42,116 nucleotides of DNA from Candidatus Micrarchaeota archaeon (GTDB lineage Archaea > Micrarchaeota > Micrarchaeia > Anstonellales > Bilamarchaeaceae). Both the position numbers and the translations under genes were made by a program. How positions within the stretch are numbered: position 1 is the stretch's first letter; each line of letters starts with the position of its first letter. This document shows positions 1 to 41,640 of this stretch, one piece after another. The notes under the pieces are model-generated. The model saw only the letters and a program-made list of their open reading frames with translations, made no database searches and was not told the DNA's origin. The DNA lies in the NCBI GenBank assembly GCA_023248035.1, contig JAHFFJ010000004.1, positions 12,048 to 54,163 of the forward strand, in the 5' to 3' direction.

Positions 1-553
1 CCTTCTTATTTTGAAGAGGTTCATTTGCGAGCATTGTAGTTAATGGGGTTTTTAAGTATCTTTCAGATGCGCGTCCAAATACCCGGGGTTTGTCAAGTAC
101 TGAATCTACCATTCCTCTTGGGACATCTGATGCAACAGAACTACAAATAACAACATAAATGCCTGGCTGAGCTTTTCGCAGTTCACTTACAAATTTTTCA
201 ACTACTCTTTCATGTCCATAATGAAACATAATTATTGCAATATCTTTTCCTTGTGCAGTTTCTGCTCCAGTTGTTGCGTAGCTGGCTGCTGGTTGACTAA
301 AAACTGTTGCTCCTTTACACATTTTCCCGAGCTTTGCTACTATTTTATTCCCAATAACTTTATGTCCTTCATCTATTCCAACATGAGTCGCTACCGGCTT
401 ATAATTCGGAACATAATCACTCAGTATAAAAACAACGGCGCTACAATCTGTCAAATGCTTTGTGGTGGTGCGTGCAGGTTCAAAAACTCTACTAAGAAAA
501 TCCGCAGGTATTCTACTATCTGATCCCTTTCCGCCCATTCTATGCCCTGTCAT
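1..553 (-). CDS. Hypothetical protein, 3'-truncated by the window edge; paralog of 23960-24490
   Basis: Own minus-strand translation from ATG at 553-551 (MTGHRMGGKGSDSRIPADF...) is open to position 1. GAGGTGA lies 5 nt upstream. GKDIAIIMFHYGHERVVEKFVSELRKAQPGIYVVICSSVASDVPRGMVDSVLDKP aligns with [55 protein letters not shown] of ORF 23960-24490. Absent from the ORF track because it is partial. Confidence 0.6.
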   Translation of the reverse strand, partial: MTGHRMGGKGSDSRIPADFLSRVFEPARTTTKHLTDCSAVVFILSDYVPNYKPVATHVGIDEGHKVIGNKIVAKLGKMCKGATVFSQPAASYATTGAETAQGKDIAIIMFHYGHERVVEKFVSELRKAQPGIYVVICSSVASDVPRGMVDSVLDKPRVFGRASERYLKTPLTTMLANEPLQNKK

Positions 554-705
554 ATCTTCACCTCAATTCGTGTTAAAAATAGAAATAATGCGGACTTATT
601 AAAAATATATCTCCCGATTAGAATTTATTGTAAACAACATACCAAGAATACTGCCGACTCGAGCAGATGAATTGGCGCAAATCCTTTTTCTTTAACATTA
701 AAATC

Positions 706-790
706 TAGGCGCGAGCGGATGCGGGTTTCAGCCCGCAGATAGCGAGCGCATTTTAGTTTTCCGTGCGAGTCCTCAGGCGAGCGAACGGAA
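706..790 (+). repeat. GC-rich GCGAGC-repeat patch ending in a copy of the intron M module
   Basis: Four GCGAG(C) copies in about 80 nt plus hairpin gcggg-tttcag-cccgc. Positions 763-787, gtgcgagtcctcaggcgagcgaacg, match the M module gtgcgagccgata(a)ggcgagcg(a/t)ac found inside the tRNA introns at 9602-9626, 18722-18745 and 23129-23154. Confidence 0.45.
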
Positions 791-9423: not shown

Positions 9424-9544
9424 CCACTTTACAATAAAGTGAAATTTTCTTAAATCCGACCATAAAAAAAGCCATTTTTTCTGTTTTATCTACATAGAAA
9501 TAGTCAATCTAACATTTCAAAATGAAAAATAGCCCCGGGCAGAT

Positions 9545-9760
9545 TCTCGAGCTTTTGGAAAAAGCTCGACCAAAACGGTCTGCTAATTTTTGCTTTTTTC
9601 TGTACGCTCGCCTTATCGGCTCGCACAGAACTGATAACAAAAATGGTTTACTAAAGTTCAGTAATTTTCCGATAAGGAAAATTCAACTGAACAAAAACCA
9701 AAAACCCGAAAAGGGTTTTCAACAGAAAGTTTTGATCAAAACTTTTTCTAAAAGTTTTGT
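9545..9760 (-). other. tRNA-Gln intron 2, inside the T-loop (~216 nt), full-length modular element
   Basis: It separates GGCAGTTCGA from ATCTGCC; the junction is ambiguous within GAA. It contains H1 (9738-9758), H2 (about 9700-9720), H3 (9656-9692), M (9602-9626), ccaaaacggtctgctaat (9570-9587) and H4 (9547-9569). Confidence 0.7.
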
Positions 9761-9803
9761 TCGAACTGCCGTCAAGAGGTCCAGAACCTCCTATCCTTGA
9801 CCA

Positions 9804-9915
9804 AAGTCTGCACTTTTTTAGGAAAAAAGTGCACAAAAAACTGGTTTGTTATCAGTCAAAAACCCGAAGGGGGTTTCAACACCAATTTTTGATCCAACTT
9901 TTTTTGAAAAAGTTG
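9804..9915 (-). other. tRNA-Gln intron 1, inside the D-loop (~112 nt)
   Basis: It separates GTCTAGCC from TGGTCAAGGAT. It contains hairpins ccaac..gttgg (9894-9916) and gcac..gtgc (9810-9832) and an H2 copy (about 9858-9878). Confidence 0.7.
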
Positions 9916-9955
9916 GGCTAGACGACGGGGCTATAACTGAAATTTGTTTGATAAG

Positions 9956-10009: not shown

Positions 10010-10135
10010 GTTCAGTAATTTTCCGATAAGGAAAATTCAACTGAACAAAACCAAAAAACGAAACTTATATATAGTGGGAAACTTCTAATAAATGTGTACA
10101 GTTAGTTTTTTGGTTCTTTTTTCCTAAAAAAGAAC
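10010..10135 (-). repeat. Solo (non-tRNA) fragment of the intron element
   Basis: Positions 10010-10046 are a 37/37 identical copy of hairpin H3 (9656-9692; reverse complement at 18665-18701), followed by caaaaccaaaaaa. Positions 10112-10135 are an H-type hairpin, ggttcttttttcctaaaaaagaac. No tRNA exon-like sequence flanks them. Confidence 0.6.
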
Positions 10136-10189
10136 GGTGAATATGATGGTGAATAAGGAGGTTAAGGAAAGGGATTTCCTTCATAGGCA

Positions 10190-17102: not shown

Positions 17103-18098
17103 GTGCTACTCATGTCTGAATGGAAATCTCAAAAACCTAGTGGGGATAGAGGCGGAAAAAGATCTAATGAACGTCCAAATCGATCAGGATATCGCGGGGG
17201 CGGCAATCGTTCCAGAGACGAAAATAGTCGTGGTTATGGGCGAGATTATAATCGTGGCGGAAATGACGATGGCGGTTTTAACAAGCGCGAGCGCTTTATG
17301 CGAAAATCCCGTGACAGCGTTATGCAGGCGTTAAAAAGCCGTGACATGCTTCTTGCAAGCGTAACAAAGTCCATCGAAGATCTGGATAAGACAATTAACC
17401 TTCTTGGCGAGCGTCTTGAAGACTGGTATAGTCTTTATTTCCCAGAACTTAAGACTGATGAAAAAATCAAATTTTGCAATGCAATACTCATAATTGACCG
17501 AGATAATTTTGATGAAAACGCTCTCTCTGCTATACTTGGCCAGAAGCATGCTTTAGAACTTGCACAATCATCTAAAACAAGTCTTGGAACAAAACTCTCT
17601 TCAAAAGACCTTTCAGAATGTCTTTTACTTGCAAAATCCATTCTTTCTCTTGAAACTTTAAGGAAGGATTACGAAAATTATCAGAAAGAACTTGCACATG
17701 AACTTTGTCCCAATCTTTCTGAAGTTGGCGGTCCGGAAATCGCTGCAAAGCTGGTTTCACATGTAGGTTCACTGGTGAGACTTGCAATGCTCCCTGCGAG
17801 TGCGATACAGGTTTTGGGTGCGGAAAAAGCCCTTTTTAAACACTTAAAGAACCGCAGAATCCCTCCTCCAAAGCACGGAATAATATTTCAATATGCACGC
17901 ATTTCATCATCACCAAAAAGTGTTAGGGGTAAAATTGCCCGTGCACTTGCAAACAAGCTTTCAATCGCTGCAAAGGCCGATGCATTTACAAAAAATCCAA
18001 TATTCGCTGATCTGAAAAAGGATCTCGAAACTCGTCTATCTGAAATCATGGTGGATTACGAGAGACAAAAGAAAGCAAAAGTAACTCCTCCAGCTTAA
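17103..18098 (+). CDS. nop5: Nop5 (Nop56/58)-family C/D box RNP protein with an RGG-rich N-terminus
   Basis: The coiled-coil and Nop domains are colinear with archaeal Nop5 (LGERLEDWYSLYFPEL; VLGAEKALFKHLKNRRIPPPKHGIIFQ; GKIARALANKLSIAAKADAF). The first ~75 aa are GDRGGKRSNERPNRSGYRGGGNRSRDENSRGYGRDYNRGGNDDGGF. The likely start is ATG 17112. Confidence 0.85.
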   Translation: MLLMSEWKSQKPSGDRGGKRSNERPNRSGYRGGGNRSRDENSRGYGRDYNRGGNDDGGFNKRERFMRKSRDSVMQALKSRDMLLASVTKSIEDLDKTINLLGERLEDWYSLYFPELKTDEKIKFCNAILIIDRDNFDENALSAILGQKHALELAQSSKTSLGTKLSSKDLSECLLLAKSILSLETLRKDYENYQKELAHELCPNLSEVGGPEIAAKLVSHVGSLVRLAMLPASAIQVLGAEKALFKHLKNRRIPPPKHGIIFQYARISSSPKSVRGKIARALANKLSIAAKADAFTKNPIFADLKKDLETRLSEIMVDYERQKKAKVTPPA

Positions 18099-18558: not shown

Positions 18559-18830
18559 GGGGAAATGAGCTAACCTGGTATGCTGTCAGCTTTGGGTCTC
18601 CACCTTTTAGGAAAAGGTGGAGCCAAAACGTGCTGTTTCAAAACCCTTTCGGGTTTTTGGTTTTGTTCAGTTGAATTTTCCTTATCGGAAAATTACTGAA
18701 CTTCACAAACCATTTTTGTAAGTGCGAGCCGATAGGCGAGCGAACGAAACAAAAATTAGCAAGACTGTTTTGGGTACCTTTTAAGGTATCAAAAGAGCTG
18801 GTTGTCTGAGTTCAAATCTCAGTTTCCCCA
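18559..18830 (+). tRNA. tRNA-Pro(UGG) with a 199-nt intron at 37/38
   Basis: Exon 1 is 18559-18596 (GGGGAAATGAGCTAACCTGGTATGCTGTCAGCTTTGGG). Exon 2 is 18796-18830 (AGCTGGTTGTCTGAGTTCAAATCTCAGTTTCCCCA). Features are acceptor GGGGAAA/TTTCCCC, anticodon arm TCAGC-TTTGGGA-GCTGG, T arm CTGAG-TTCAAAT-CTCAG and discriminator A. Confidence 0.88.
18597..18795 (+). other. tRNA-Pro canonical-position intron (199 nt), full-length modular element
   Basis: It contains H1 ctccaccttttaggaaaaggtggag (18598-18622), H2 aaaaccctttcgggtttt, H3 (18665-18701), M (18722-18745), attagcaagactgttttggg (18755-18774) and H4 gtaccttttaaggtat. CAAA (18790-18793) pairs with loop nt 32-35 UUUG, leaving an AG|A bulge at the 3' splice site. 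Confidence 0.8.
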
Positions 18831-18975
18831 TAAAAGGAACCAAGGTTCCTTTTTATCCTCCTTTGAAAAGAACCAATGGTTCTTTTTGAATCTCATGAAA
18901 GAACCTACGGTTCTTTCTATCTCCCTCTTTTTTGAATCAAGGTTTCTTTCTAACTTCCTTTTCTTTGAGTATTTT
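18831..18975. repeat. Tandem array (~4 units, ~33-nt period) of palindromic hairpins
   Basis: The units are aaaaggaaccaaggttcctttt, gaaaagaaccaatggttcttttt, gaaagaacctacggttctttc and a degenerate fourth, separated by the pyrimidine spacers atcctcc, gaatctc, atctccc and aacttcc. The first hairpin plus T5 sits directly 3' of tRNA-Pro (terminator-like). Confidence 0.75.
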
Positions 18976-20247: not shown

Positions 20248-20955
20248 ATGGCAGCAACATCAAGGCCACCTTCAGTTGCTCTACCGCCAGAACAAAGACC
20301 ATCTCCATTTGCTCTGGATCCAGAACAAAGACCAAAACCCAAAGGTACTTATAGTTCTAGATCACCTCAAGTTGAATCTCCTCAATCTATACGCTCTGTT
20401 ACTCCTGCTAATCGATCTGGTGCAATATCCAGAAAGCCTCGATCAGACCAAGAAGAAAAATTATCTCCAGAAGAAAAAACAAGGCAATTGACCCTTATAG
20501 CAAGACTAAAAACAAATGTAGCCGGAATCACATCCGATGATTTTTCAGAATTTATTAGAGCTAGTACTGATTGCGAAGTTGCTTTGGCTTTCACTTCTCT
20601 TTTGGCAGTGTATCTTGATCGGCACGAACCGGAACATATATTTCTTGTTTCTATCTTAGTTGCCTTTTCTGGTTCAGAAGAACTTAGGAGTCATGGCATT
20701 CTTTGTCTAAAAAACATAGCGAAAAATGGCCATAATATTTGTGAATTCTTAGACTCTACTGGCAATTCCAACTCCACAGGCCCTACAAATCCACTTAGAC
20801 TTATTATGGAAGATATAAATCTATCAGGTATTTCCAATATAATTGATATACTTGTGTTGCATGCAAATCTTGGTCATACTCAAAGAGCCCAAGTTTTAGA
20901 TGTTATCGAAGGGAAACCCGATTTTGTTAGACTAAAAACTGCGTTAACTATATAG
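20248..20955 (+). CDS. Hypothetical protein with a Pro/Ser-rich repeat-containing N-terminus
   Basis: 235-aa ORF with the internal DNA/peptide duplication PPEQRPSPFALDPEQRPKPKG. Its stop abuts the 3' end of the convergent tRNA-Thr. Confidence 0.5.
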   Translation: MAATSRPPSVALPPEQRPSPFALDPEQRPKPKGTYSSRSPQVESPQSIRSVTPANRSGAISRKPRSDQEEKLSPEEKTRQLTLIARLKTNVAGITSDDFSEFIRASTDCEVALAFTSLLAVYLDRHEPEHIFLVSILVAFSGSEELRSHGILCLKNIAKNGHNICEFLDSTGNSNSTGPTNPLRLIMEDINLSGISNIIDILVLHANLGHTQRAQVLDVIEGKPDFVRLKTALTI

Positions 20956-20989
20956 CCTCGGGAGGGATTTGAACCCCCGGCCTCCTCCT

Positions 20990-21107
20990 TGCCCGCTTTT
21001 GGTAAAAGCGGGACCAAAACAGTCTTGCTAATTTTCGCTGCGCGAAAATGTAAAACCCGAAAGGGTTTTCAACAGAAAGTTTTGATCCAACTTTTCCTAA
21101 AAGTTGG
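20990..21107 (-). other. tRNA-Thr intron at 37/38 (118 nt), element variant lacking H3
   Basis: It contains H1 ccaac..gttgg (21087-21107), caacagaaagttttgatc, H2 (about 21051-21070), ccaaaacagtcttgctaat (21014-21032) and H4 cccgc..gcggg (20992-21012). Intron nt -6..-3 CGGG pair with loop 32-35 CUCG, leaving a CA|A bulge. Confidence 0.75.
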
Positions 21108-21128
21108 TACGAGAGAGGCGCTCTACCA

Positions 21129-21208
21129 TTTTTCGCGCTTTTTTAGTAAAAAAGCGCACCAAAAAACTAACAATAAGTTTTTGATGCACCTTTTTTCTAA
21201 AAAGGTGC
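21129..21208 (-). other. tRNA-Thr D-loop intron (80 nt), minimal element (H1 - closing stem - H4)
   Basis: It separates GCTCAGT from TGGTAGAGC. The hairpins are gcacc..ggtgc (21186-21208) and gcgc..gcgc (21135-21157), with AUCAAAAAC...GUUUUUUGGU between them. Confidence 0.7.
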
Positions 21209-21245
21209 ACTGAGCTACCGAGGCTTTAATTCAAATTAAATAGTC

Positions 21246-21255
21246 TATTTTAAAA
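21246..21255 (-). promoter_or_regulatory. TATA-like box for tRNA-Thr
   Basis: Minus-strand TTTTAAAATA lies 22-31 nt upstream of the tRNA 5' end (21224). Confidence 0.45.
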
Positions 21256-21496
21256 GACCTGAGCATTTTCATGAAAGTGTACCCCCGGAGAAAAAATTCA
21301 AATGAACAGGGAAAAAAGGATGATGTTTACTGAATTTTTGACTTGGATAACTGTGGGTGTCAATACGGATGAAGTTTGATGAAACTTTACCATAAGTTTA
21401 TAGGAGGAAAGTTTCGTTTGATGAAACTTTAACTGGAGTCTGTACGAAGTAAAGTTTCAAATGCGCCCGCCGGGATTCGAACCCGGGTCATTAGCT

Positions 21497-21543
21497 CTCA
21501 TCTTTACCCCTAGTTTTGGGCCGCCTTTTCCTAAAAGGCGGAA
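21497..21543 (-). other. tRNA-Gly anticodon-loop intron (~47 nt)
   Basis: It lies between CTTCCA and AGCTAA. It contains the H-type hairpin ccgccttttcctaaaaggcgg (21521-21541) followed by CCCAAAAC. I could not draw a clean 4-bp central helix for a canonical BHB here. Confidence 0.6.
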
Positions 21544-21564
21544 TGGAAGGCTAAGATCCTACCG

Positions 21565-21678
21565 TTTTCCAAGCTTTTAGGTGCGAGCACACCCTGTTAG
21601 GGCGTGTCGCGGTTTCATCAAAACCGATTCGTTATTTTTAACTAATCAGTTTTTGTGAAACTTTTTCCTAAAAAGTTT
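21565..21678 (-). other. tRNA-Gly D-loop intron (~114 nt)
   Basis: It contains hairpin aaac..gttt (21658-21677), CACAAAAAC...GGUUUUGAUG, and a long GC-rich hairpin gtgcgagcacaccctgttagggcgtgtcgc (about 21581-21610) at the M-module position. Confidence 0.6.
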
Positions 21679-21717
21679 GCTAGACTACAGGCGCTTTTTT
21701 CTTTTGTTGTTAAGTTG

Positions 21718-21727
21718 TTTTTAAAAA
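21718..21727 (-). promoter_or_regulatory. TATA-like box for tRNA-Gly
   Basis: TTTTTAAAAA lies 24-33 nt upstream of the tRNA 5' end (21694). Confidence 0.45.
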
Positions 21728-22192
21728 TCACAGCTTTTTCCTCATTTCTATGTGCATGTCTCTAAAACCCCACTTCTTGTACAATCCATGGGCTTCAGGA
21801 TTTATCGCATGCACCCCTATAGATGCATACGTCATCTTTTTCTTTTTGAACCATGCAAGCGTTTCTTTTACTAATTGCTCACCGATGCCTTTGCCACGAT
21901 ATTTTTCCTTCACATACAAATCAAATATATGACCAAGCCTCTTGAGCTTGAAAACTTTCACGTTGTTCTTTATTGCGCTTAATGAATACCCCACTATTTC
22001 GTCATCCTCTTTCGCAACAAGTACGAGCCTATTCGACGATTTTATACCTTTCAAGACCCATAGTTTCCATTTGCGTTCGGCGTCATCTACTAAATCAAGC
22101 ATCGAGCTTCCACGTATCCTGTGGAATTGCATGAGTTCGTTCCATAACACTAAAAGAACTTTAACATCTTTTGGAGTGGCCTTTCTTATCAT
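21728..22192 (-). CDS. GNAT-family N-acetyltransferase
   Basis: 154-aa ORF. LYVKEKYRGKGIGEQLVKETLAWFKK is motif A. Confidence 0.85.
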   Translation of the reverse strand: MIRKATPKDVKVLLVLWNELMQFHRIRGSSMLDLVDDAERKWKLWVLKGIKSSNRLVLVAKEDDEIVGYSLSAIKNNVKVFKLKRLGHIFDLYVKEKYRGKGIGEQLVKETLAWFKKKKMTYASIGVHAINPEAHGLYKKWGFRDMHIEMRKKL

Positions 22193-22885: not shown

Positions 22886-22900
22886 CGCCGAGGGCAGGAT

Positions 22901-23006
22901 CCCCAACTTTTAGGGAAAGTTGGATCAAAACAGTCTTGCTAGTTTTAAAAACCCGGAAGGGTTTTTCAACAAACTGTTTTTGTAAAACTTTTTTCCTAAA
23001 AAGTTT
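22901..23006 (-). other. tRNA-Ser T-loop intron (~106 nt), element variant lacking H3/M
   Basis: It contains H1 aaaac..gtttt (about 22984-23007), caacaaactgtttttgt, H2 aaaaacccggaagggttttt (about 22947-22968), tcaaaacagtcttgctagt (22924-22943) and H4 ccaac..gttgg (22903-22923). Confidence 0.7.
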
Positions 23007-23035
23007 TTGAACCTGCAATCCACGAGGGATCGGCT

Positions 23036-23072
23036 CTCTCGTAAAATTTGTTCCGTTTTTCCAACAGATCCG
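23036..23072 (-). other. tRNA-Ser canonical 37/38 intron (37 nt)
   Basis: Loop nt 32-35 CUCG (23078-23075) pair perfectly with intron nt -6..-3 CGAG (23041-23038). The 3' bulge is AG|A. Confidence 0.8.
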
Positions 23073-23096
23073 TTCGAGACCGACGCACTACCGGAA

Positions 23097-23187
23097 TGCA
23101 CTGCTGCCTCCAGTTTCCCGTTTTGTTTCGTTCGCTCTCCTTATCGGTTCGCACGAAACTGAAAACTCGAGACTGAAAACGCAATTA
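23097..23187 (-). other. tRNA-Ser D-arm intron (~91 nt)
   Basis: The junction is ambiguous within a duplicated GCA. It contains hairpin CGCA-TAAT-TGCG, the direct repeat GTTTTCAGT x2, the M module (23129-23154, RNA GTGCGAACCGATAAGGAGAGCGAACG) and AAACAAAA as in the Pro intron. Confidence 0.6.
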
Positions 23188-23200
23188 TGCGACCTCGGCA

Positions 23201-41376: not shown

Positions 41377-41640
41377 TAAAAGGAACCAATGGTTCCTTTT
41401 TATCCTCCTTTTTAAGTGATCATGGTTCTTTTTGAATCTCCTTTGAAAAGGACCAAGGTCCTTTTCTAATCTCCTTTTCTTTGAATGGTTCTGTTCCAAT
41501 CTCCTTTTTATTTGAAATGAAAGAAACCAAGGTTTCTTTTTAACTTCCTTTTGAAAGGAAACTACGTTTCCTTTCTAACCTTCCTCCATTAGAACGGTTC
41601 TTTGCAACTTCCTTTTTCTTTCAATTCCTCCAGATGTTTA
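41377..41640. repeat. Tandem array (~7 units) of palindromic hairpins, sister of 18831-18975
   Basis: The units include aaaaggaaccaatggttcctttt, gaaaaggaccaaggtccttttc, gaaagaaaccaaggtttcttttt and gaaaggaaactacgtttcctttc, plus degenerate ones. The spacers are atcctcc, aatctcc, taatctcc and aacttcc. The first ~32 nt are near-identical to the start of the 18831 array. Confidence 0.75.

Follow-up and report, generated by a model that had tools for sequence, protein, structure and literature searches.

We analysed a 42,116-bp stretch of DNA (39.8% G+C), referred to here as the window, from a Candidatus Micrarchaeota archaeon (DPANN) whose alanyl-tRNA synthetase (AlaRS) is at most 75% identical to the Micrarchaeia and Bilamarchaeum metagenome-assembled genome versions of this enzyme. 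The subject is a pair of adjacent minus-strand genes, tRNA-Gly(UCC) and tRNA-Thr(CGU), each with one intron in the D-loop and one in the anticodon loop. It is likely that these are two separately transcribed tRNA genes, each interrupted twice by copies of a single family of structured introns.

Two adjacent tRNA genes with three exons each

All coordinates of the two genes and their introns refer to the minus strand. The tRNA-Gly(UCC) gene consists of exon 1 (21679–21694, tRNA positions 1–16), exon 2 (21544–21565, from the 3′ part of the D-loop to position 37) and exon 3 (21462–21496, positions 38–73), with the start of exon 2 placed at 21565 in the register discussed below and at 21564 in a first-pass annotation made from the sequence. 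The tRNA-Thr(CGU) gene follows with exons at 21209–21224 (positions 1–16), 21108–21128 (positions 17–37) and 20954–20989 (positions 38–73). CCA is not encoded in either gene. A TATA-like box lies upstream of each, TTTTTAAAAA at 21718–21727 (−33 to −24) for tRNA-Gly, immediately 3′ of the stop codon of a GNAT open reading frame (ORF; 21728–22192), and TTTTAAAATA at 21246–21255 (−31 to −22) for tRNA-Thr. These positions agree with the boxes placed 22–33 nt upstream by the first-pass annotation, which had also proposed the strand, the three exons and the two intron sites of each gene.

When joined, the exons were called tRNA-Gly(tcc) and tRNA-Thr(cgt) by ARAGORN and folded as canonical cloverleaves, which bears out both the exon structure and the presence of an intron in each D-loop and each anticodon loop. 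Both spliced products have the 7-bp acceptor stem, U8, G18G19, U33, UUCRAnU T-loop and anticodon of class I elongator tRNAs. Orthologues in a related locus, L203 (triose-phosphate isomerase, TIM, 68% identical), agree with this structure: TIM, GNAT, tRNA-Gly(UCC) and tRNA-Thr(CGU) follow one another there as in the window, and neither tRNA gene is interrupted. Because this syntenic locus carries both genes intact, the window genes are not chance assemblies. The spliced window tRNA-Thr is identical to the L203 gene over positions 8–65, and the D-loop of the latter, AGUUGGUA, supports the Thr D-loop junction as first drawn (CAGU|...AAAAA|UGGUA). The intron lengths likewise held up, at 80 nt (21208–21129) and 118 nt (21107–20990) for tRNA-Thr, and at 47 nt (21543–21497) and 113–115 nt, depending on the junction chosen, for the tRNA-Gly introns that had been estimated at about 47 and 114 nt.

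Neither ARAGORN nor Rfam at gathering threshold reported an RNA gene in the raw 42-kb window. All five of its tRNA genes, with ten introns between them, were thus missed by both programs, which implies that the tRNA complements of such DPANN genomes are badly under-called. At its 3′ end, tRNA-Thr shares 2 nt (20954–20955) with the stop-codon end of a convergent ORF (20248–20955) that has no Pfam match.

One family of hairpin-ended inverted-repeat introns

All four Gly and Thr introns are copies of one element family with hairpin ends and inverted repeats. The family accounts for 8 of the 10 introns that the five tRNA genes of the window (Gln, Pro, Ser, Gly and Thr) contain. Its members are modular and 47–216 nt long. 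At the 5′ end, 0–2 nt past the 5′ splice site, stands a hairpin X-U4-6-AGG/AGA-A4-6-X′ and then (A/C)(U/C)CAAAA(A)C; complete copies end in GUUUUGR and a second hairpin with the loop CCU, ACC or ACU. In these terminal hairpins a variable G+C base carries a constant U4-6/NNN/A4-6 top. The CAAAAC and GUUUUG strands form a helix, named P2 here, and the middle of the element may hold additional hairpin modules. Since the 3′ layout is the inverse of the 5′ layout, the ends of the element are inverted repeats; accordingly, the terminal unit was detected on both strands, at both ends of Thr intron 1, Thr intron 2, Gln intron 1, Gln intron 2 and Ser intron 3.

A covariance model of the terminal unit gave 14 matches at E < 1e−3 in the window, all within or beside the five tRNA genes, and six of them fall within the four Gly and Thr introns, with scores of 49.1, 44.9, 35.5 and 30.7 bits for the 5′ units and of 42.4 and 26.0 bits for the 3′ units. 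In the terminal-unit alignment, five variable hairpin base pairs showed 2–8 double substitutions each. A first MAFFT alignment, in which runs of unequal length made the units structurally inconsistent, was dropped. The initial model, R1, was built partly from free-standing metagenome copies that are possibly viral, and it was rebuilt from ten tRNA-embedded archaeal units only. Rfam searches of the introns at E ≤ 10 returned no family match, only miRNA-like hairpin noise.

Thr intron 1 (21129–21208, 80 nt; 81 nt as folded) represents the element in its smallest complete form, consisting of the 5′ hairpin, P2 (AUCAAAAAC/GUUUUUUGGU), the 3′ hairpin and the tail GAAAAA with no inserts; its terminal units lie at 21175–21210 on the minus strand and 21133–21168 on the plus strand. 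No other copy is as pristine: its two hairpins, of 12 and 11 bp, are perfect and its P2 is complete. Thr intron 2 (20990–21107, 37/38, 118 nt) has the 5′ hairpin, an extended P2, two insert hairpins (GAAAACCC-UUUC-GGGUUUU and AUUUUCGC-GCA-GCGAAAAU), the 3′ hairpin and a terminal CA.

Gly intron 1 (21566–21678, D-loop 16/17) is 113 nt long in the register we favour and spans 21565–21678 in the first-pass version. It comprises a 5′ terminal unit (21647–21680; hairpin AAACUUUUU-AGG-AAAAAGUUU followed by CACAAAAAC; 35.5 bits and E = 7.5e−7 with model R1), a long P2 (CAAAAACUGAUU/GAAUCGGUUUUG) and a 3′ hairpin broken up by a GC-rich hairpin, and the whole intron folds with z = −7.6. The GC-rich hairpin (GCGACACGCCC-UAACA-GGGUGUGCUCGC, 21583–21610, 12 bp with one bulge) had been noticed in the first pass and is confirmed as a structure, but it does not replace an M module as was then supposed: it lies within the 5′ arm of the degenerate 3′ terminal hairpin, of which the 3′ strand CCUAAAAG alone is intact. 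The 3′ end of the intron (21566–21581) reads CCUAAAAG, CU, UGGA and an AA that belongs to the 3′ bulge. Of these, CCUAAAAG forms an outer helix (h′ below) with the 5′ strand of the 5′ hairpin, while UGGA pairs with exon nucleotides U11–A14. Gly intron 2 (21497–21543, 37/38, 47 nt) is reduced to a 5′ terminal unit, CCGCCUUUU-AGG-AAAAGGCGG plus CCCAAAAC (44.9 bits), and a short tail.

A C/D-box or kink-turn (K-turn) reading of the GUGCGAGCC-GAUAA-GGCGAGCG module and of CUGA/UGAUGA in Gly intron 1 was considered by hand and rejected, as the geometry did not fit. The spacer between the two genes (21374–21452) holds two tandem 42-nt repeats, each resembling a degenerate terminal unit (GAAACUUU...AAAGUUUC plus AUCAAAC), which were weak matches to the model (13.9 bits).

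Splice-site geometry

Splice sites were scored against the bulge-helix-bulge (BHB) motif over all pairs of cut sites. The central helix H pairs exon nucleotides −6 to −3 with intron nucleotides −6 to −3, the 3-nt bulges are cut after nucleotide 2, and helices h and h′ flank the motif. At the sites fixed by tRNA structure (37/38 and 59/60), H was 4/4 in Thr intron 2 (CUCG/CGGG), the Pro intron, Ser introns 2 and 3 and Gln intron 2, and 3/4 in Gly intron 2; h was 5/5 in all six, and Ser intron 3 forms a perfect hBHBh′. Compared with the frequency of complementary 4-mers within the introns (2–10%), the probability of at least five perfect H helices among six is below 5e−6. The outer helix h′ was more variable, with 5/6 pairs in Gly intron 1, 4/6 in Gly intron 2 and 2/6 in Thr intron 2. 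Because five of the six structure-fixed introns form a perfect 4-bp central helix, we regard the family as BHB introns, the Gly and Thr members being apparently mostly of the relaxed (hBH-like) rather than the strict form. For Gly intron 2 the first-pass annotation had remarked on the lack of an obvious canonical central helix and suggested a relaxed motif, a fair reading of its H of 3/4 (CUUC/GAUG, with a U.U mismatch).

Family introns elsewhere conform to the same geometry, with H pairs UUGC/GCGA in the Gly(GCC) gene of L113 and CUGU/GCGG in the Asn gene of L161, and a perfect helix in the 38/39 register in the Thr gene of L201. In D-loop introns a further rule was apparent: the cut lies at 15/16, and H′, the intronic strand of H, mimics the D-stem's 3′ strand and sits two nucleotides before the 3′ site. 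This held in 5/5 other cases, namely window Gln (GUCU/AGAC), window Ser (GCAU/GUGC), L118 Arg (GCUC/GAGC), L201 Thr (GCUC/GAGC) and L026 Gln (GUCU/GGAU).

The same geometry bears on the Gly D-loop junction. The junction first proposed, AGC|CGGUA, had been flagged as the least certain; that caution was justified, as no symmetric BHB is possible there. The worry that exon 2 might give no D-loop of legal length was unfounded, since four alternative junctions all yielded legal tRNAs in ARAGORN. The candidate D-loops across registers are AGCACGGUA, AGCGGUA and AGCCGGUA. In the 16/17 register, H is UCUA/UGGA (4/4), h′ is 5/6, h is 4/5 and both bulges are present, which gives an exon 2 starting at 21565, an intron of 113 nt and the D-loop AGCACGGUA. 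H is also 4/4 in the 17/18 register, with an 11-nt D-loop, and 3/4 at 15/16, the usual site of the family, with the D-loop AGCGGUA. The 3′ junction modelled in this way is probably one base upstream of the original one (AGC|...|ACGGUA, with exon 2 from 21565).

For this organism we infer the following route to cleavage and ligation. The pre-tRNA would refold from a two-hairpin form to a competing 'rod' conformer, in which the ends of the intron pair as the outer helix h′, one side of it supplied by the 5′ strand of the 5′ hairpin and the other by the 3′ strand of the 3′ hairpin. H would form between intron nucleotides −6 to −3 and four exon nucleotides lying shortly before the 5′ site; in D-loop introns H′ would be supplied by the intronic copy of the D-stem 3′ strand, with the cut at 15/16 or 16/17. 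By analogy with ARMAN-2, a broad-specificity splicing endonuclease of the epsilon2 kind probably cuts both bulges, after which an RtcB-type ligase may join the exons and the intron would be released, probably as a circle. For the whole precursor, the rod conformers cost 3.3–7.6 kcal/mol more than the minimum free energy structure. Reduced copies (Gly intron 1, L201 Thr intron 1 and L118 Arg intron 2) keep just the h′ partner and H′, which argues that splicing needs the rod or BHB form and that the palindromic ends reflect origin.

Several points weigh against this account. Thr intron 1 reaches an H of only 2/4, and no exon-intron helix of at least 4 bp was found when bulges of 0–7 nt and helices of 3–6 bp were searched, so that the BHB model leaves its splicing unexplained; Gly intron 2 is a milder anomaly, as its H taken alone is not above background, 30% of intron 4-mers matching as well. 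The H′ strand of Thr intron 2 sits within a stable 3′ hairpin and would need partial melting (ΔΔG 7.6 kcal/mol). No endonuclease or ligase gene (EndA, RtcB) was found within the window. The covariation alignment had been pre-selected for at least 4 paired bases, and its 99% pairing is partly so by construction; among the unselected, pattern-only matches, stem length was bimodal and the long-stem class was the class flanked by tRNA exons.

Presence, absence and decay of the introns in relatives

In L201 (TIM 72% identical), family introns occupy both tRNA-Thr(CGU) sites; the order of modules is shared with the window, and the stems differ in sequence yet stay complementary. The D-loop intron of this gene is cut down to a hairpin, the h′ partner and GAGC-AA. 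Uninterrupted tRNA-Gln genes occur in L003, L007 and L043, and the tRNA-Gln of L026 has a family D-loop intron, while L033 and L040 carry family introns in the T-loop. None of the internal intron modules turned up in exact searches of 80 AlaRS-anchored Micrarchaeota loci. Together with the uninterrupted genes of L203, this distribution would fit intron gain in which the element spread to sites where a BHB can form (15/16, 37/38 and 59/60), with older copies shedding whatever the BHB does not require.

A separate observation concerns L049, in which positions 297–400 (minus strand) hold a tRNA 5′ fragment (GGGCUCGUAGCUCAGU, positions 1–16), a complete minimal element and then GAACUAAUCUCUCCCCUAGCG with a T-run; there are no downstream exons. 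The fragment could be the 5′ piece of a split (trans-spliced) tRNA or a gene remnant.

Thr intron 1 and alternative explanations

The intron at the Thr intron 1 site in L201 ends in GAGC-AA, a perfect H′, and the window copy ends in GAAA-AA. Thr intron 1 may be a young intron with very relaxed or unfamiliar recognition, an intron whose sites are presented by its hairpins, or an inactivating insertion.

The last of these would make tRNA-Thr(CGU) dead or dying, its D-loop 'intron' being a recent, unspliceable insertion of a mobile element, with function left to the Gly gene and to the Thr anticodon-loop intron. Thr intron 1 is indeed the sole family intron without a central helix (H 2/4), its pristine structure is as expected of a young insertion, and the contrast between its GAAA-AA end and the perfect H′ of the L201 counterpart points the same way. 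CGU and UGU isoacceptors are redundant through wobble, and the loss would be tolerable if a tRNA-Thr(UGU) exists to read ACG. Against this stand the intact exons, identical to the uninterrupted L203 gene at positions 8–65, the promoter box, the perfect BHB central helix kept by the second Thr intron and the presence of such elements in all five tRNA genes of the window, which makes insertion as such compatible with function. The intact exons do not settle the matter, because a young insertion would show no decay either way. On balance we think it rather unlikely that the gene is a casualty.

Recognition might instead depend on the terminal hairpins, which would present the splice sites to the endonuclease or to a family-specific factor in the form of a helix-bulge-helix, where the tRNA stem, 5′ hairpin, P2 and 3′ hairpin meet in a four-way junction. 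Thr intron 1 would then be explained. The 5′ hairpin always begins 0–2 nt after the 5′ site and the 3′ hairpin ends 2–6 nt before the 3′ site, the hairpin stems covary strongly while end-to-end rod pairing is often poor (Pro, Gln intron 2), and folding of the full Thr precursor gives the two-hairpin form as its minimum free energy structure. However, Gly introns 1 and 2, L201 Thr intron 1, L118 Arg intron 2 and the L113 intron have lost one hairpin or half of one and keep the h′ partner and H′, the five perfect H helices out of six would be left unexplained, and we know of no endonuclease that recognises such a four-way junction. We therefore consider this mode of recognition improbable.

Self-splicing or self-cleavage (group I/II introns, or paired small ribozymes with ends joined by RtcB) is very hard to credit despite the strong structure (z −5.9 to −7.6) and common conserved blocks of the introns, given that Rfam at E ≤ 10 matched neither group I/II nor known small ribozymes, that minimal members are 47–81 nt of hairpins, that the conserved blocks pair with one another as plain helices and that BHB geometry accounts for the junctions.

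Free-standing copies in giant-virus contigs

The terminal-unit pattern also matched IMG/VR contigs. As pattern scans of metagenome and viral data return mostly chance matches (stem 0–2), hits were filtered by hairpin and then by covariance model, and the viral and Micrarchaeota searches reported here used the model built solely from the ten tRNA-embedded archaeal units. This gave 48 matches at E < 1e−4 in 11 viral loci (82 kb) and none at that threshold in 69 other viral loci that match the bare pattern (645 kb); Micrarchaeota loci (649 kb) gave 8 matches at E ≤ 0.01. One of the viral contigs, L207, encodes a nucleocytoplasmic large DNA virus (NCLDV) major capsid protein and the catalytic subunit of poly(A) polymerase, and others are labelled GVMAG.

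The viral copies are free-standing and intergenic, and occur in nearly every intergenic region of L207 (5100–14080) and L285 (420–9380); others lie in L235 (784–880 and 1730–2015) and in L261, L301, L315, L264, L226 and L232. They have the form hairpin+CCAAAAC ... GUUUUGG+hairpin, often with 3–4 tandem 31-nt units per arm. The copy at 786–880 of L235, a 95-nt hairpin-P2-hairpin, has the layout of Thr intron 1 (fold z = −7.5), and by eye the unit of the Pro intron and a unit of L207 differ at 1 of 29 positions.

The resemblance is a lead that the intron family may derive from a DNA-level mobile element; it may reflect homology or a convergence of short AT-rich palindromes. A fuller scenario, which we put forward only tentatively, is that the BHB tRNA introns of Micrarchaeota are a domesticated hairpin-ended inverted-repeat mobile element, of which the same or a close relative is free-standing and very dense between the genes of some giant viruses of eukaryotes. 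A fresh insertion without a BHB, such as Thr intron 1, would either kill the gene or gain an exon-complementary tail and decay to a BHB core, as may have happened in the Gly introns and in L201 Thr intron 1.

Comparison with known systems

Hirata et al. reportedly described, in 2012, non-canonical introns and the epsilon2 endonuclease of ARMAN-2 (Ca. Micrarchaeum acidiphilum). In ARMAN-2, 56% of tRNA genes are disrupted and the epsilon2 endonuclease cuts strict hBHBh′ and relaxed hBH motifs, one of them at 59/60 (Fujishima et al. 2011, PMC3239211); the enzyme is also treated by Miyata et al. (2025, PMC12397907). The window resembles this system in phylum, in having several introns per tRNA, in the use of the 37/38 and 59/60 sites, in the mixture of strict and relaxed motifs and in the many disrupted tRNA genes. 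It differs in that the window introns (47–216 nt) form one modular, inverted-repeat-ended family in which D-loop 15/16 introns with a D-stem mimic are prominent, whereas the tested ARMAN-2 substrates have 13-nt and 25-nt introns and the portion of that study consulted describes no shared family.

In Thermoproteales, 'intron transposition' in tRNA genes has been proposed with a mechanism given as unknown (review PMC4090602). The likeness lies in recent gain seen by comparing relatives and in possible targets being set by BHB requirements. Thermoproteales are, in contrast, Crenarchaeota with an (alpha-beta)2 enzyme, and the review is silent on terminal hairpins, inverted repeats and free-standing copies; the anatomy of the window element is defined and transposon-like, and relatives of it occur free-standing.

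By anatomy, the element also recalls palindrome-associated transposable elements (PATEs) and MITEs, the miniature transposable elements with inverted repeats, in being short (80–250 nt) and non-coding, in its hairpin-folding terminal inverted repeats, and in its many copies, those in giant viruses being intergenic. The PATEs of IS200/IS605 are palindrome-associated, non-autonomous DNA elements. MITEs of giant viruses include the Pandoravirus 'submariner' and the Pithovirus repeats (PMC4495683, PMC10664404). Unlike MITEs, the window copies are clean insertions, with no target-site duplication when the interrupted genes are set against their intron-free L203 counterparts. The window ORFs that were scanned include no associated transposase, and the archaeal copies lie inside tRNA genes at BHB-compatible sites with site-specific 3′ tails.

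Multi-intron tRNA genes with relaxed BHB introns were already known in this phylum. Literature searches on the motif string and on giant-virus MITEs found no description of the element, and as far as the searchable literature shows, the single intron family, the decay series, the D-stem-mimic rule, the intact copy without a BHB and the giant-virus relatives are new. No mechanism of archaeal tRNA intron gain has been known since 'intron transposition' was inferred in Thermoproteales; this locus joins a transposon-like intron family, stages of decay from intact copies to a BHB-only core, and orthologues with and without introns, so that the question becomes testable. If domestication of a mobile element were true, it would provide the first mechanistic route to archaeal tRNA introns and an unexpected mobile-element link between an archaeon and giant viruses; if the viral resemblance reflects homology, it would tie the mobile elements of DPANN archaea to those of eukaryotic viruses.

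Other tRNA genes and repeats in the window

The remaining three tRNA genes are likewise interrupted. In the tRNA-Gln(CUG) gene (9530–9932, minus) one family intron interrupts the D-loop (15/16) and another the T-loop (59/60), and tRNA-Pro(UGG) (18559–18830, plus) has a 199-nt family intron at 37/38. Three introns occur in tRNA-Ser(CGA) (22886–23199, minus), of which those at 15/16 and 37/38 have no terminal units and the one at 59/60 is a family intron with a perfect hBHBh′.

Just upstream of tRNA-Pro lies a gene for a Nop5/Nop56-type C/D-box ribonucleoprotein (RNP) protein (17103–18098); the gene after it codes for a GNAT acetyltransferase rather than for fibrillarin. A partial free-standing element at 10010–10136 (minus), just upstream of tRNA-Gln, comprises a 5′ unit, a CAAAAAAC/GUUUUUUG helix and a GUUCAGUUGAAUUUUCC... 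module, and the loop of its helix holds ACTATATATAAG, which may be a TATA box. Twice at 700–790 (plus), downstream of a class II aminoacyl-tRNA synthetase gene, the motif GYGCGAG...GGCGAGCGAAC occurs free-standing; it is a helix containing tandem G.A mismatches, for which no canonical K-turn fit was found by hand, and is also an internal module of Gln intron 2, the Pro intron and Ser intron 1. Arrays of ~33-nt tandem repeats, whose unit is a hairpin (AAAGGAACC-AA-GGTTCCTTT) followed by TTATCCTCC, lie at 18834–18962 and 41381–41616; the repeat finder gave 7 copies per family, and one array begins directly after tRNA-Pro.

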